Below, one piece after another: positions 1 through 4,830 of a stretch of DNA of 4,830 nucleotides. Within the stretch, counting starts at the first letter, position 1. The number at the start of each line of letters is the position of its first letter. The position numbers and the translations under genes are program-made. The stretch is from a virus (Duplodnaviria > Heunggongvirae > Uroviricota > Caudoviricetes), in the IMG/VR virus record IMGVR_UViG_2563366878_000014. One strand, 5' to 3'. The notes beneath the pieces were generated by a model. The model was not told the origin of the DNA. It saw nothing but the letters and a program-made list of their open reading frames with translations, and did not search any database.

Positions 1-1287
1 GATTCACTGGATATGATTACGGGCTTTTCGCCGTCATATAAAAAAATTGTTATTGGTGATGATGAAATAACGATGCCTGGCGACAAGGTTGTTAAGTTTA
101 AACGCGCATCAACTGCCACATATATCAATAAATCAGGCGTATTTAGTGTTGCTAAAATTGATGAGCCACGATTTGAAAAAGAAGGTTTATTGATTGAAGG
201 ACAGCGCACTAACTATTTTGTTAAATCCAATACTCCCGCTGAATGGACGAGTACCAGCAATATCGATAAAACTAATAATGGTGTTGATGAATTTGGTTTT
301 TCATATGCCAAAATGCGAACAAAAGATAATATGACAGGACAATCATCTGCACTTAGTCTGCATACATGCAGTGCATCCCGGGGGATTGATGTTAGTGGCG
401 ATAATAAGTATTGCACTGTTTCATGCAGGGTTAAAGCTCCTGATGGTCTTCGTTGTCGTTTGCGTTTTGAAAAATACGATGGGTCGGTTTATACATTTTT
501 AGGAGATGCTTATTTAACTTTCGGAACTCTGATAATAGAAAAAACTGGCGGAGCAGCCAATAGAATAGCAGCTACTGCAACTAAAGATCCGGTTACAGGG
601 TGGATTTTCTATGAGGCAACTATAGAAGCTGTTGAAGGTGAAACCTTAATTGGCGCAATGATTCAGTATGCGCCGAAAAAAGGTGGTATAACTGAAGCGG
701 GAGATTATATTTACCTTGCAACACCACAATTTGAAAACGGCGGATGTGCTTCATCTTTTGTTATTACGACAACTGCACCCGCAACCCGCTCCAGTGATAT
801 GGTGACGATCCCAACTGAAAATAATATCTATAATAGACCGCTTACGTGTCTTGTCGAGGTTAATAGAAATTGGGGCGATATTCCTCCTAATGTAGCACCG
901 CGTATTTTTGATTTTTCTGGTGTGCCACCTATTGAGTCAATTACATACGCTTTTAACACAACTGAGAAATATTACGGTCAGCTTTATATGCAAACTTATA
1001 AAGCGTCGACAAGTACTTACGTTTCTAGTGTGTTTGCTGGTCGAACTGATGTTCGAAAATTCATTGGTGGTTTTAATATTTATTCTGATGGTACTAAACG
1101 AGTAGTTTCTAACGGTGAGGCTACTAAAACTATGAAAACGGAGTGGACGGGCGTAAAAACACGGACCTTTATTCGAATTGGAGGTCAAGCCACATCGGGA
1201 ACTCGTCATCTATTCGGCCATTTGAGAAATCTTCGTCTCTGGCATAAAGAATTAACTGATGCGCAAATGGGGGAGAGTATTAAATGA
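1..1287 (+). CDS. Tail fibre / receptor-binding protein, C-terminal part (5'-partial; frame open from base 1, 428 codons in window). C-terminus looks like a lectin-type jelly-roll (LamG/ConA-like) domain.
   Basis: Frame 1 has no stop from base 1 to TGA at 1285-1287. The first ATG at 13 has no room for an RBS, so the gene most likely starts upstream of the window. C-terminal motif ...GTRHLFGHLRNLRLWHKELTDAQM matches my recollection of the typical end of LamG-like jelly-roll domains in phage fibre tips. N-terminal window segment RASTATYINKSG...DEPRF...GLLIEGQRTNY resembles the start of a second such domain (weaker). Genomic context is tail fibre (Tfa remnant and Pin recombinase downstream). Confidence 0.75.
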   Translation, partial: DSLDMITGFSPSYKKIVIGDDEITMPGDKVVKFKRASTATYINKSGVFSVAKIDEPRFEKEGLLIEGQRTNYFVKSNTPAEWTSTSNIDKTNNGVDEFGFSYAKMRTKDNMTGQSSALSLHTCSASRGIDVSGDNKYCTVSCRVKAPDGLRCRLRFEKYDGSVYTFLGDAYLTFGTLIIEKTGGAANRIAATATKDPVTGWIFYEATIEAVEGETLIGAMIQYAPKKGGITEAGDYIYLATPQFENGGCASSFVITTTAPATRSSDMVTIPTENNIYNRPLTCLVEVNRNWGDIPPNVAPRIFDFSGVPPIESITYAFNTTEKYYGQLYMQTYKASTSTYVSSVFAGRTDVRKFIGGFNIYSDGTKRVVSNGEATKTMKTEWTGVKTRTFIRIGGQATSGTRHLFGHLRNLRLWHKELTDAQMGESIK

Positions 1288-1679: not shown

Positions 1680-2103
1680 TAGAAATTGGGGCGATATTCC
1701 TCCTAATGTAGCACCGCGTATTTTTGATTTTTCTGGTGTGCCACCTATTGAGTCAATTACATACGCTTTTAACACAACTGAGAAATATTACGGTCAGCTT
1801 TATATGCAAACTTATAAAGCGTCGACAAGTACTTACGTTTCTAGTGTGTTTGCTGGTCGAACTGATGTTCGAAAATTCATTGGTGGTTTTAATATTTATT
1901 CTGATGGTACTAAACGAGTAGTTTCTAACGGTGAGGCTACTAAAACTATGAAAACGGAGTGGACGGGCGTAAAAACACGGACCTTTATTCGAATTGGAGG
2001 TCAAGCCACATCGGGAACTCGTCATCTATTCGGCCATTTGAGAAATCTTCGTCTCTGGCATAAAGAATTAACTGATGCGCAAATGGGGGAGAGTATTAAA
2101 TGA
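1674..2103 (+). pseudogene. Duplicated 3' fragment of the fibre gene (last ~143 codons, including the lectin-like C-terminus) with no proper start or RBS.
   Basis: Identical to 858-1287. The frame opens only after TAA at 1663-1665. There is no ATG with an SD; the ORF track start at 1738 is an internal GTG. Confidence 0.7.
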
Positions 2104-2381
2104 AAGATTTAACACTCAAATTTGCAGACAGGGTCGACTTTTCGGCCTTTATGGAGAGCATTGGCTATTATGATGACGAGTCGATGCAGGATGATATTCT
2201 TATTGACGTGATAGGTAATGTGTACAAAGAAACCGGAGAACTTACTGAAGATGGCGAGCCGGTATGTGTTAAGGAGGACGGATATTTTGTAAATGTGCGC
2301 ATCATTAATGATTCGCAAATATCGTCATTATTCGATGAACACGCGGTTGCTGTTGAGCATCAACTCCGTAGCTGGATGTGA
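2100..2381 (+). CDS. Hypothetical acidic 93-aa protein (copy 2, identical to 1284-1565).
   Basis: Identical sequence with the same RBS, carried inside the duplicated fibre fragment. It could be expressed by read-through transcription. Confidence 0.6.
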   Translation: MKDLTLKFADRVDFSAFMESIGYYDDESMQDDILIDVIGNVYKETGELTEDGEPVCVKEDGYFVNVRIINDSQISSLFDEHAVAVEHQLRSWM

Positions 2382-2390
2382 GGAAGAAAA

Positions 2391-3095
2391 ATGGCTACAT
2401 CGACAGTAATTCCTGATGACATCAAAACGCTAAAGGGAGATGTCAGTAAGGCAAAGGAAGATATTTCCTCAATTAACGTAAAAGTATCAACGCTTCAGAC
2501 TGATATGGACAGTGCAAAGCAGGATATCAGTACCAGATACACAAAAACAGAAGTGGATAATAAGCTGAAAAACAAAGTGGAAGTGAACGATCTGGAAAGT
2601 GGTCGTTATGGCGGAGATTTTTACCCGCTGACTGGCCGTGAAGCGTTTTATTTATGGGGATTGGGCACAACTACAGCGGCGGCAAATCTTTATCTTAATC
2701 CTGACCCTGCAATTTCGTCTGTGCTGCGGTCAACATCGTCTATCCGCTATAAACATTCAGTAGAGACGATAGATTCAGAGCACGCCGATCTCATTTTCAG
2801 GATGCGCCCTGTGTGGTACAGGTCGCAATGCGAAAATGACAGGCGTGACTGGGGATTCTATGGATTGATTGCCGAGGAAGTAGGAGAAATTGCCCCTCAG
2901 TTTGTTCACTGGCGACCAGCCAACGAAGATGATGCACCGGAAACCATTTCCAGCAATGGCCTTGTTGCCGAAGGTGTAATGTACGAACGTCTGGTTGTTC
3001 CACTGATTCACCATATCCAGAAACTGACTGAAAGAGTTGATGAACTTGAGTCAGAATTGAAGTTGTTATCAACTTCCCAAAGCGATATCGGATAA
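2391..3095 (+). CDS. 234-aa fibre-like protein: N-terminal coiled-coil-like region plus C-terminal domain resembling the phage intramolecular chaperone (Peptidase S74-like) domain.
   Basis: Strong RBS GAGGAAG 5 nt before the ATG. C-terminal motifs LIFRMRPVWYR, GLIAEEVGEIAPQFV and VMYERLVVPLIHHIQKLTERVDELESEL match my recollection of the S74 chaperone-domain consensus (LRPVxY / GxIAQEV..P / Y..LVPLL..IKEL). Confidence 0.8.
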   Translation: MATSTVIPDDIKTLKGDVSKAKEDISSINVKVSTLQTDMDSAKQDISTRYTKTEVDNKLKNKVEVNDLESGRYGGDFYPLTGREAFYLWGLGTTTAAANLYLNPDPAISSVLRSTSSIRYKHSVETIDSEHADLIFRMRPVWYRSQCENDRRDWGFYGLIAEEVGEIAPQFVHWRPANEDDAPETISSNGLVAEGVMYERLVVPLIHHIQKLTERVDELESELKLLSTSQSDIG

Positions 3096-3105
3096 AGGAG
3101 GAGTA

Positions 3106-3399
3106 ATGGATATAACACCTTTTCTTCATGCGCTTTGTGCTGTGGCTGCGCAGGTAATGATTGGTCTTTTTACCGGAAACTGGGTTTACGGGGCGATAGC
3201 CGGTTGTACGTTCTTCATTGCGCGTGAACACACCCAGGCAGAATATCGCTGGATTGAAATGTTCGGGCATGGCAAGCGGATTAACATGCCGTGGTGGGGC
3301 GGTTTTGATCCGCGTGTTTGGGATGTGGCAAGCCTGATAGATTTTGCTGTGCCGGTGGTGGCGTGTCTGCTGGTCTGGCTGTTGGTTAATCGTGGGTGA
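3106..3399 (+). CDS. 97-aa small predicted inner-membrane protein (2-3 hydrophobic helices), hypothetical; possible moron.
   Basis: Strong RBS AAGGAGG 4-5 nt before the ATG. Hydrophobic stretches FLHALCAVAAQVMIGLFTG, WVYGAIAGCTFFIA and VASLIDFAVPVVACLLVWLLV. Spot-checked lines are GC-richer than the upstream genes. Confidence 0.7.
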   Translation: MDITPFLHALCAVAAQVMIGLFTGNWVYGAIAGCTFFIAREHTQAEYRWIEMFGHGKRINMPWWGGFDPRVWDVASLIDFAVPVVACLLVWLLVNRG

Positions 3400-3409
3400 A
3401 AAAAGGTGA

Positions 3410-3529
3410 GCTGTATATGCAACGGAGGAAGAAACCCCGTTGCTGGAAGCCTGGAAAAAGTATCGGGTGTTGCTGAACCGTGTTGATACGTCAACTGCAC
3501 AGGATATTGAATGGCCAGCACTGCCGTAG
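3410..3529 (+). pseudogene. tfa: 3' remnant of a tail fibre assembly (Tfa-family) gene: conserved C-terminal 39 codons only.
   Basis: Frame 2 reads [39 protein letters not shown] then TAG, the C-terminal signature I recall for lambda Tfa / Mu U / P2 G-type proteins. An in-frame TGA at 3407-3409 sits immediately upstream and there is no start or RBS. Confidence 0.75.
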
Positions 3530-3605
3530 GGTAAAACATATAAATTCTATAATTAGATGTATCTTTCCATTTACGGCAAGGAAGGGGGCTTGGAAGACGT
3601 AAAGC

Positions 3606-3628
3606 ATCTCACACCGAGATTATTTTTT
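3606..3628 (+). terminator. Weak candidate intrinsic terminator for the + strand gene string (5-bp stem ATCTC/GAGAT, then TATTTTTT).
   Basis: Hairpin 3606-3620 followed by a T-run at 3621-3628. The stem is short and AT-rich, and the site overlaps the recombinase stop on the other strand. Confidence 0.25.
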
Positions 3629-4217
3629 ATATGTCAGGTGTCTGAAGTTTTGCTTTGGCTCTTAAAATGGTTTGCCGCGAGGTTTTGAATTCCCGGGCAA
3701 TGGCACTTATACTTACACCTGACTTAATTCGTTCGAATACCACCTGTTTCTGTTCTTCATTTAACACAGGTGGTCGACCAAAACGTTTCCCTGCGCCCCG
3801 GGCTCTTACTATCCCGGAATGAGTGCGTTCAAGTAAAAGGTCTCGTTCAAATTCAGCGACTGCTGAAATTACTTGCATCATCATTTTTCCTGTTGGACTG
3901 GTCAGGTCAATGCCCCCCAATGCTAAGCAATGCACTCTGATACCTGTTTCGGTCAGTTGTTCCACTGTTTTCCTGATATCCATTGCATTACAACCAAGGC
4001 GATCCAGTTTTGTCACAATCAATTGATCACCACATTTCAGGCGAGCAAGCAACCGGTTAAAACCAGGACGCTCACTGGTTGCTGCTGAGCCGCTAATGTG
4101 TTCTTCGATTATTTGCTGAGGTTTGATTTTAAAACCTGCACTTTCGATTTCCCGGCGTTGATTTTCGGTGGTCTGATCCAGAGTTGATATCCGACAGTAA
4201 GCAAAAATTCGAGACAT
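3627..4217 (-). CDS. pinR: Small serine recombinase, DNA invertase/resolvase family (Pin-like), 196 aa.
   Basis: N-terminal YCRISTLDQ with the catalytic Ser, central LDRLGCN...[16 protein letters not shown], and C-terminal GRPP plus helix-turn-helix are hallmarks of the Hin/Gin/Pin and resolvase family. Length and sequence match my recollection of E. coli prophage PinR/PinQ; I cannot tell those two apart without a search. Convergent with the tail-fibre genes. Confidence 0.93.
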
Positions 4218-4596
4218 AGTGAGACTCTATACGAAATTGGTGTACATATCATAATGCATATCCAAAAATTATTTCGCTTATTATTGCACATATTTGTATG
4301 TATACGTTCGAAAATAAACAAATTCGGATGCAGTCCCGTAATTTTGGTGTAACCCAAAATCGATTTTTTGAAAAATGGCTTTAACTCGGTTTGTTTTTCG
4401 AACTCCGGGCGGACTCGAGAAAGACGAATAATAGTGTTGTATGTTGTTTTAGCCAGATTTCAATTTGTTTGGTCTTGGAAAAGTGGAGCAAAAAGTTGTT
4501 AAAGTGGAAAAATGGTAAAAAAGTAGGTTGTTGCGGCATAACGTAGTTGTTGATATTTTTTAATGCATTGAAAAATTATTTTTCAGGGGGTGTTTA
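4218..4596 (-). promoter_or_regulatory. AT-rich intergenic region upstream of the recombinase gene; expected to hold its promoter, exact -10/-35 not resolved.
   Basis: 379-bp non-coding spacer. Contains the dyad ATTTTGG-TGTAAC-CCAAAAT (4341-4360) and three GTTGTTG repeats (4495-4552). A TATGAT -10-like hexamer on the - strand lies about 30 nt upstream of the ATG. Confidence 0.3.
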
Positions 4597-4830
4597 TTAC
4601 ACTTTACCATTTAAATTTTGGTTGTCTTTAAGAACTGATATCGCTGTTTGTAATAATTCTTTGTTATCCAGCCATGACTTTTTCTTTATGTTTCCTTCAA
4701 TGTAATCAAGCAATGTTCTGGTATTGATAGGTCTTCCCTGTTTTGCCACTTCCACGACAGCATCTCCCAGGATAATTCTGACTTCAGGAAGCTGCGCGGG
4801 GAACCACTTTAGGGTGTCTTTTGATTTCAT
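4597..4830 (-). CDS. ynaE: 77-aa hypothetical protein in the position of Rac ynaE / Qin ydfK (cold-shock-induced prophage gene family); start ATG is at the window edge.
   Basis: Complete 77-codon ORF from ATG at 4830-4828 to the stop at 4597-4599. Same strand as and directly upstream of the Pin-like gene, as I recall for pinR-ynaE and pinQ-ydfK in E. coli K-12. Symbol is assigned by position and length from memory, not by verified alignment. Confidence 0.6.
   Translation of the reverse strand: MKSKDTLKWFPAQLPEVRIILGDAVVEVAKQGRPINTRTLLDYIEGNIKKKSWLDNKELLQTAISVLKDNQNLNGKV

Follow-up and report, generated by a model that had tools for sequence, protein, structure and literature searches.

The right end of a lambdoid tail operon

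The window (the whole stretch of DNA that was analysed, 4,830 nt) makes up the right-hand end of the tail operon of a lambdoid prophage. An 816-bp duplication aside, it is 99.9-100% identical to the prophage beside prfC in E. coli F344 (NZ_OY754421). Its features, from left to right, are:

13..1287, + strand: distal 424 residues of the side tail fibre Stf (NCBIfam NF048003, E = 7e-17; PHROG 1419, tail protein)
2100..2381, + strand, with a first copy at 1284-1565: gene for a 93-aa acidic protein (PHROG 1361, function not assigned)
2391..3095, + strand: gene for a 234-aa tail fiber domain protein (Pfam PF13884, passing the cut-off with E = 4.6e-6; C-termini of tail fibres, PHROG 3299/454)
3106..3399, + strand: gene for a 97-aa small membrane protein (PHROG 1443, function not assigned)
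3400..3418, + strand: old illegitimate junction zone where the 97-aa gene meets tfa (aligned to the intact tfa genes of 2H10, Rac and lambda and to the independent Ayreon and mEp460 remnants)
3419..3529, + strand: tfa pseudogene remnant, made up of the final 36 codons and the stop of a tail fibre assembly gene of the lambda/Rac type (conserved C-terminal helical domain)
3470..3489, no strand: putative homologous crossover interval inside the remnant (switch from the module-linked to the pin-linked haplotype)
3530..3626, no strand: spacer from the remnant stop to the end of the recombinase gene, belonging to the tfaR/tfaQ-pin block
3627..4217, - strand: serine recombinase of the DNA invertase family, 196 aa (Pfam Resolvase and HTH_7; PHROG DNA invertase)
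4597-4830, - strand: ydfK, at the right end of the window

The distal part of Stf has a GTA head-spike-fibre-like domain (the full gene is at 4888-7287 of the 16-kb parent locus, L001), and its C-terminal tip is weakly LamG-like (Pfam Laminin_G_3, E = 0.0016, under the cut-off). In the single-copy locus, the 93-aa gene begins with an ATG that shares bases with the stf stop (ATGA), and in intact loci tfa overlaps stf in this way. An intramolecular chaperone domain of the endosialidase type (Peptidase_S74) is present in the 234-aa protein. The 97-aa gene is the last gene of the fibre module, and in the annotation of phage 21 its product is a membrane protein with two TMDs. No Pfam, NCBIfam, PDB or PADLOC match was found for the 97-aa protein, and the 93-aa protein likewise has no PDB sequence match and no match in Pfam, NCBIfam or PADLOC. 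The 93-aa and 97-aa genes always accompany this type of fibre. That the former encodes a fibre chaperone and the latter a membrane-located exclusion or moron function are guesses.

We considered the 93-aa protein as a possible substitute for Tfa. Among the best 120 of its 227 relatives, those with a name are called "hypothetical," and nearly all are from E. coli. Its AF2 model is mediocre (pLDDT 65.6), and Foldseek found no fold match in the PDB with E below 0.08.

The 816-bp duplication is perfect and head-to-tail (857-1672 is repeated as 1673-2488). It takes in the final 143 codons of stf, the 93-aa gene in full, and 33 codons at the start of the 234-aa gene. A truncated 34-aa ORF (1575-1679) and a 3' fragment of stf without a promoter result from it. 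All of the closest genomes (F344, GmM066, A22, and A32) and phage PhiR49_1 have a single copy, spanning 4014 bp, and none of the related genomes and phages has the duplication. The 25-mer across the duplication junction was absent from 5426 E. coli genomes, from the GTDB representative genomes, and from JGI metagenome contigs, and we found no record of the 34-aa junction ORF. Microhomology at the joint is at most 1 nt. The duplication may be private and real, an assembly artefact, or edited sequence.

The recombinase gene converges with the fibre operon, and its product has the same accession in the parent locus and in the Rac locus of K-12 (WP_000086527.1, which is PinR). A search of the window for the hix/gix-like consensus, with three mismatches allowed, gave 0 matches, no such site was found at or near 3400-3420, and no inverted repeats of at least 18 nt were found around the locus. 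A weak hix/gix-like imperfect palindrome (TAACCCAAAATCGATTTTTTGAAAAA) lies at 4350-4375, about 135 bp upstream of the pin start codon and without a partner. It has the best half-site score in the window, 11.6 versus 19-33 for four reference sites. With 0 consensus matches, only this weak site, and no inverted repeats, an invertase crossover site at the junction was rejected.

The spacer between the remnant and the recombinase gene has one mismatch to 2H10 (at 3616). As far as 3577, where the displayed alignment ends, it is identical in Rac, Tritos, and PhiR63_1. An RNA element or terminator in 3400-3630 was also rejected: this region has no intrinsic terminator and no Rfam match, and its folding z-scores are -1.65 and -2.08. 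An imperfect long hairpin (GCCGUAGGG...CCAUUUACGGC) lies at 3522-3575, between the remnant stop and the pin stop. It lacks a T-run (overall folding z only about -2), and it could act as a weak bidirectional stop for the convergent transcripts.

A 3' fragment of tfa

An earlier note on this DNA had read 3410-3529 as the C-terminal remnant of a Tfa-family gene, and database comparisons bear this out. Within the 39-residue translation of this stretch, residues 4-39 align with positions 95-130 of the 131-position Pfam profile Caudo_TAP (PF02413; E = 4.8e-16, 59.5 bits, cut-off 22.1). The peptide also matches four PHROG families (tail fibre assembly or chaperone), aligns with the C-termini of the Tfa proteins of lambda, SfV, APSE, and P2-like phages, and aligns with the extreme C-terminus of U, the Tfa of Mu (PDB 5yvq_B, residues 142-174 of 175). 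The note had suggested tblastn with a Tfa query, and the intact 191-aa Tfa of 2H10 gave a significant match: its residues 156-191 correspond to 3419-3526 of the window, with 94.4% identity (E = 3.7e-18). The survival of a remnant was confirmed, far beyond what chance would produce, but the in-frame homologous part is 36 codons and starts at 3419, rather than the ~39 codons that had been proposed. Its coding part is 3419-3526, and its stop codon is 3527-3529.

The placement of the fragment was described correctly: it follows the stop of the 97-aa gene (at 3399) and precedes the convergent recombinase gene (which ends at 3627) by about 100 bp, the spacer being 97 nt. It also holds that no intact tfa lies elsewhere in the operon. 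With the full 191-aa Tfa of 2H10 as the query, tblastn found only residues 156-191, and the rest of tfa is absent from both the window and the 16-kb parent locus. What is missing at the remnant is the N-terminal fibre-binding domain (a full-length Tfa has about 175-195 aa). Upstream of the remnant and in frame with it, there is a TGA at 3407-3409 and no ATG. In intact tfa loci, the stf stop overlaps the tfa start; the remnant has no such coupling.

The fragment is not new as an observation. At the equivalent position in F344 (8603-8713 of L001), RefSeq/PGAP already lists a tfa pseudogene ("tail fiber assembly protein, incomplete, missing N-terminus"), and the equivalent stretch of IHE3034 is likewise a RefSeq/PGAP incomplete tfa pseudogene. 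The remnant is an ordinary prophage pseudogene scar of a known kind, previously annotated. As a routine pseudogene that annotation pipelines flag, it has little weight in itself.

A passage of PMC9608196 that cites North et al. 2019 describes the N-terminal fibre-binding domain of Tfa as variable and its C-terminal helical domain as highly conserved. The remnant resembles the Tfa/Caudo_TAP chaperones (lambda Tfa, Mu U, and P2 G) in this conserved C-terminal domain. It differs from them in having no N-terminal fibre-binding domain, no start codon, and no translational coupling to a fibre gene. Judged by its sequence, it cannot be a working Tfa chaperone.

The junction and the switch of haplotype

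Within the junction zone, a residual tfa-like GAGCTG remains at 3408-3413, and one nucleotide is deleted, relative to intact tfa, just before GCAACGG (near 3419). The junction between the 97-aa gene and the remnant is base-for-base identical in PhiR49_1, phage 21, Tritos, PhiR63_1, and 2G7b, while ev243 and IHE3034 hold a diverged allele of it. Using a 171-nt query (3330-3500, at least 80% covered), we found the junction in 1744 of 5426 complete E. coli genomes (about a third) as well as in 36 phage records, the classical phage 21 among them. Because the same junction is present in all of these, 3405-3418 is an old, shared scar and not an event of this locus. The 97-aa gene is always the left neighbour of this type of remnant, and it is 90-99% identical across all of the junction-bearing loci that we compared. 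We found no prior description of this specific junction in the literature that we searched.

To the right of the remnant, there are three different contexts. The window, Tritos, and PhiR63_1 have pin and ydfK. PhiR49_1, 2G7b, ev243, and IHE3034 have a ybcY-type methyltransferase, a second tfa fragment, a hydrolase, and ompT, which is the tfaD-ybcY-tfaX-ompT arrangement of DLP12 in K-12. Phage 21 and many lambda-like phages have sitABCD, which follows a remnant truncated once more, at 3475. The 3' end of the remnant varies with the context: the full-length pin-type remnant ends like tfaR and the tfa of 2H10, and the ybcY-type remnant ends in ...TAPDIEWPTNPVRE*, which matches K-12 tfaD exactly, both at its 3' end and in the bases downstream. 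So the same short homologous patch has unrelated flanks in different genomes, with one left junction and three right-hand contexts. The arrangement in the window (97-aa gene, remnant, and pin) is present in 461 of the 5426 complete genomes, as counted with a 351-nt query (3300-3650) that requires the end of pin. This leaves about 1280 genomes (1744 minus 461) with the same left junction and no pin.

An 18-nt direct repeat (GGTGAGCTGTATATGCAA at 3405-3422 and GGTCAGCTTTATATGCAA in stf at 976 and 1792) was considered as possible microhomology for the join and set aside. The 16/18 match is close to chance (an estimated ~0.3 expected in 4.8 kb), and the repeat is partly derived from tfa, as GAGCTG...GCAA is also found in Ayreon, mEp460, and intact tfa.

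An independent 3' remnant of tfa, with a different left junction, is present in Ayreon (3501-3611 of locus L004) and in mEp460 (3501-3610 of locus L005). Neither is annotated. These remnants lie ~50 nt past an Stf whose end is an intramolecular chaperone domain of its own (Peptidase_S74).

As the earlier note had suggested, we aligned the locus with intact stf-tfa-pin loci of the Rac type, and both breakpoints could be placed. On the right, homology starts at 3418 and continues through pin, ydfK, and beyond (98.2-98.6% identity to 2H10 and 91% to Rac). For 3418-4830, which covers the 3' end of tfa, the invertase gene, and ydfK, the DNA identity to 2H10 is 98.2%. In a multiple alignment, weak similarity to tfa extends leftward from 3418 to ~3408. 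The left limit of homology to Rac and 2H10 is at 5240-5336 of L001, corresponding to stf codons ~118-150, where the conserved phage_tail_N domain ends. This boundary is outside the window, 670-760 bp to the left of its start. Compared with K-12 Rac and 2H10, then, the segment from just past the conserved N-terminal domain of Stf to codon ~155 of tfa has been replaced by the genes now in the locus.

The remnant itself has two parts. Its 5' part (3418-3469) has the module haplotype and is identical to PhiR49_1 and phage 21: at 3435, 3437, 3451, and 3469, the window (C-C-C-G) differs from 2H10 and Rac and equals those two phages. From 3490 on, it has the pin-linked haplotype, which is identical to 2H10 and Rac and unlike PhiR49_1. 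In numbers, the window has 4 mismatches to 2H10 in 72 positions versus 1 in 137 (Fisher p = 0.049), and after 3469 the mismatch at 3616 is the only one as far as 3700. Compared with PhiR49_1, it has 2 mismatches in 384 positions (3106-3489) versus 4 in 27 (3490-3516; Fisher p = 2e-4). Because the pattern of mismatches switches between 3469 and 3490, we infer that homologous crossing-over took place at least once within the remnant, in the interval of about 3470-3489. The informative sites are few (4 + 4 mismatches), and such a switch could also be produced by mutation or gene conversion. The interval 3470-3489 is the likeliest place for the real joint between the fibre module and the pin block. 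The right breakpoint proposed in the earlier note, 3400-3410, is a fair description of the old junction, given that homology starts at 3418 (or weakly at ~3408), but it is probably not where the pin block was joined.

The two flanks also differ in their similarity to 2H10: the right flank is 98.6% identical, versus only 85% for the N-terminal region of stf on the left. Also, the block from the 97-aa gene through the remnant, pin, and ydfK to dinI is 98.4% identical to PhiR63_1, which has different fibre genes upstream. These identities would agree with separate histories of the left and right flanks.

How the remnant may have arisen

In the history that we favor (probability of roughly 0.78), the fragment is a dead 3' end of tfa, a Tfa-independent fibre cassette was joined to it once and then spread by homologous recombination, and the remnant in the window is a hybrid. 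The order of events, and homologous recombination as the process, are what we infer from the comparisons above. A single illegitimate event in some ancestral lambdoid phage would have joined the cassette to the last ~37 codons of tfa. The cassette would have comprised a new distal part of Stf, the 93-aa gene, optionally a second fibre protein with an S74 chaperone, and the gene for the 97-aa membrane protein. The joining would have destroyed tfa and left the DNA for its C-terminal domain, which is conserved across otherwise different tfa genes. The cassette would then have spread, with the conserved N-terminal domain of Stf as the left arm and the 3' remnant of tfa as the right arm, and because of this spread the same junction would now stand before pin/ydfK, before ybcY/tfaX/ompT, and before sitABCD (the last after another illegitimate break, at 3475). 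In this lineage, a crossover inside the remnant would have joined or re-joined the pin block. The 5' part of the remnant (to ~3469) would have come with the cassette, and the sequence from ~3490 on would belong to the tfaR/Q-pin-ydfK block. The only "activity" of the remnant would be passive, as a homology patch of ~110 bp.

Homologous recombination with the conserved 3' end of tfa as an arm is the most likely mechanism. Recombination between lambda and Rac has been shown experimentally in stf/tfa, and a third of the right-hand crossovers fell in the region of homology in tfa (De Paepe et al. 2014, PMC3945230). Those mosaic joints resemble the one in the window: a short patch of high identity has unrelated flanks, and the crossover is mapped between mismatches. 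They differ in that their homology is in intact stf/tfa, whereas the arm in the window is a dead fragment that travels with a Tfa-independent cassette. Also, they were observed experimentally, whereas recombination in the window is deduced from natural variation. Between lambda, Rac, and 2H10, the whole of tfa is 90-100% identical, and not just its 3' end, so the case for the 3' end as an especially suitable arm comes from more distant Tfa proteins and from the literature.

The earlier note had proposed a simpler history, of direct descent from an stf-tfa-pin phage by one replacement in situ, with 3400-3410 as its right breakpoint and the linkage to pin ancestral. Part of this stands. Relative to Rac and 2H10, the fibre tip and most of tfa were indeed replaced; in both, stf-tfa-pin is intact and has the spacer and the PinR of the window, the 3' third of the remnant and all sequence rightward of it are of the stf-tfa-pin type, and the 461 genomes share the linkage to pin. 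That the replacement was an event of this locus does not stand, given the number of genomes with the junction, its three right-hand contexts, and the switch of haplotype at 3470-3489. The ~1280 further genomes have an identical left junction without pin, at four sites the 5' part of the remnant agrees with the non-pin loci and not with Rac and 2H10, and the left flank has diverged far more from 2H10 than the right flank has. It is possible that the first truncation occurred in a pin-bearing ancestor, but even then, the ybcY-type alleles require a later homologous exchange inside the remnant. Overall, we consider a single replacement in situ to be unlikely.

We think it highly improbable that the neighbouring Pin-type invertase made the junction at a cryptic crossover site or that the remnant lies in an invertible segment. 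A serine invertase is just 97 nt away, and Sandmeier reportedly proposed that invertases act on cryptic crossover sites in the shuffling of tail-fibre genes. However, there is no crossover-like site at the junction, there are no inverted repeats, and the window has no minus-strand ORFs or similarity for fibre or tfa genes, that is, no oppositely oriented segments. Furthermore, the same junction is present in loci without the recombinase. (Invertase-driven exchange of stf is cited as an idea by De Paepe et al., PMC3945230.) We give just as little credence to the remnant being kept for a function, whether as a 3' UTR or antisense to pin or as a 29-aa peptide from a TTG at 3440 whose Tfa trimerisation helix would act against the Tfa of rival phages. 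The remnant is widespread and well conserved at the DNA level, a GGAGGA lies 11 nt upstream of this TTG, and a part of PMC9608196 reports that Tfa's C-terminal domain mediates trimerisation. But GGAGGA corresponds to TEEE codons that are found in every tfa, and every allele after the 97-aa gene has an in-frame stop three codons upstream; the remnant in the window also has no ATG. The alleles of the phage 21 type are cut at 3475, and as for a role in RNA, there is no terminator, no Rfam family, and an unremarkable folding energy. Among the 10 alleles that we compared, we found W->R in phage 21, KY->AC and E->A in ev243 and IHE3034, and L->R in Tritos. These changes in other alleles fall in the most conserved motif (WKKY...EWP) and include the loss of the invariant Trp and of the KY pair, which suggests decay. 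Because the changes are non-conservative, the remnant probably has no function as a protein. Judged by its sequence, it is also probably untranslated.

Translation into the remnant by frameshifting or read-through from the 97-aa ORF was rejected separately. The A AAA AAG run comes after the TGA, the remnant's own frame has the stop at 3407-3409, and the alleles of ev243 and IHE3034 are one A shorter.

Returning to the spread of a Tfa-independent cassette, PhiR49_1 and phage 21 are viable phages that have the cassette and only remnants of tfa. The independent remnants behind a self-chaperoning Stf in Ayreon and mEp460 likewise fit the history that we favor. This fibre cassette, the evidence indicates, needs no Tfa-type chaperone. 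The remnant would mark where side-fibre cassettes, which affect host range, are cut and pasted among lambdoid prophages, and it would illustrate from nature, with the crossover interval mapped, the homologous exchange in tfa that De Paepe et al. obtained by experiment. For the engineering of lambda Stf chimeras, the conserved N-terminal domain of Stf and the 3' end of tfa would be natural splice points. Beyond the annotated pseudogene, the refinement made here, namely that the remnant is a hybrid and has served as a homology arm, is probable. More doubtful, and offered tentatively, is the idea that the 3' end of tfa was retained by selection, as a "portable homology arm" that makes Tfa-independent fibre cassettes mobile. 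If so, then only cassettes that keep the ~110-bp arm could be pasted by homologous recombination into any stf-tfa phage. This would explain why independent cassettes (the 97-aa type, and the self-chaperoning Stf of Ayreon and mEp460) end in the same fragment and how the junction reached a third of E. coli genomes.

Compared with the switches of the Din family (Mu G/Gin, P1 C/Cin, and e14 P/Pin), the window is alike in having a serine invertase beside tail-fibre and tfa sequences. It differs in having no inverted crossover sites of ~26 bp and no oppositely oriented alternative fibre ends. An invertase of the PinR/PinQ type beside stf-tfa would seem to have nothing to invert here.

The cryptic prophages of K-12 (tfaD/tfaX in DLP12, tfaR-pinR in Rac, and tfaQ-pinQ in Qin) also have partial tfa frames beside ybcY/ompT or pin, and the 3' third of the remnant, the spacer, and PinR in the window are of the Rac/Qin type. 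The K-12 fragments are different in extent: TfaX is a 61-aa internal fragment of Tfa and TfaD is a chimera with a foreign N-terminus, whereas the window keeps only the last 36 codons, with no start codon. The K-12 fragments adjoin remnants of stf or terminase genes, whereas the fragment in the window follows the gene for the 97-aa membrane protein. In the ybcY-type loci, the second tfa fragment, after the methyltransferase, corresponds to tfaX of DLP12 (7645-7719 of L003, which is PhiR49_1; 4132-4206 of L009; and 4138-4212 of L010 and L011). It is more diverged, with 84-85% identity to the remnant in the window, and some prophages have two tfa scars within 1.2 kb.
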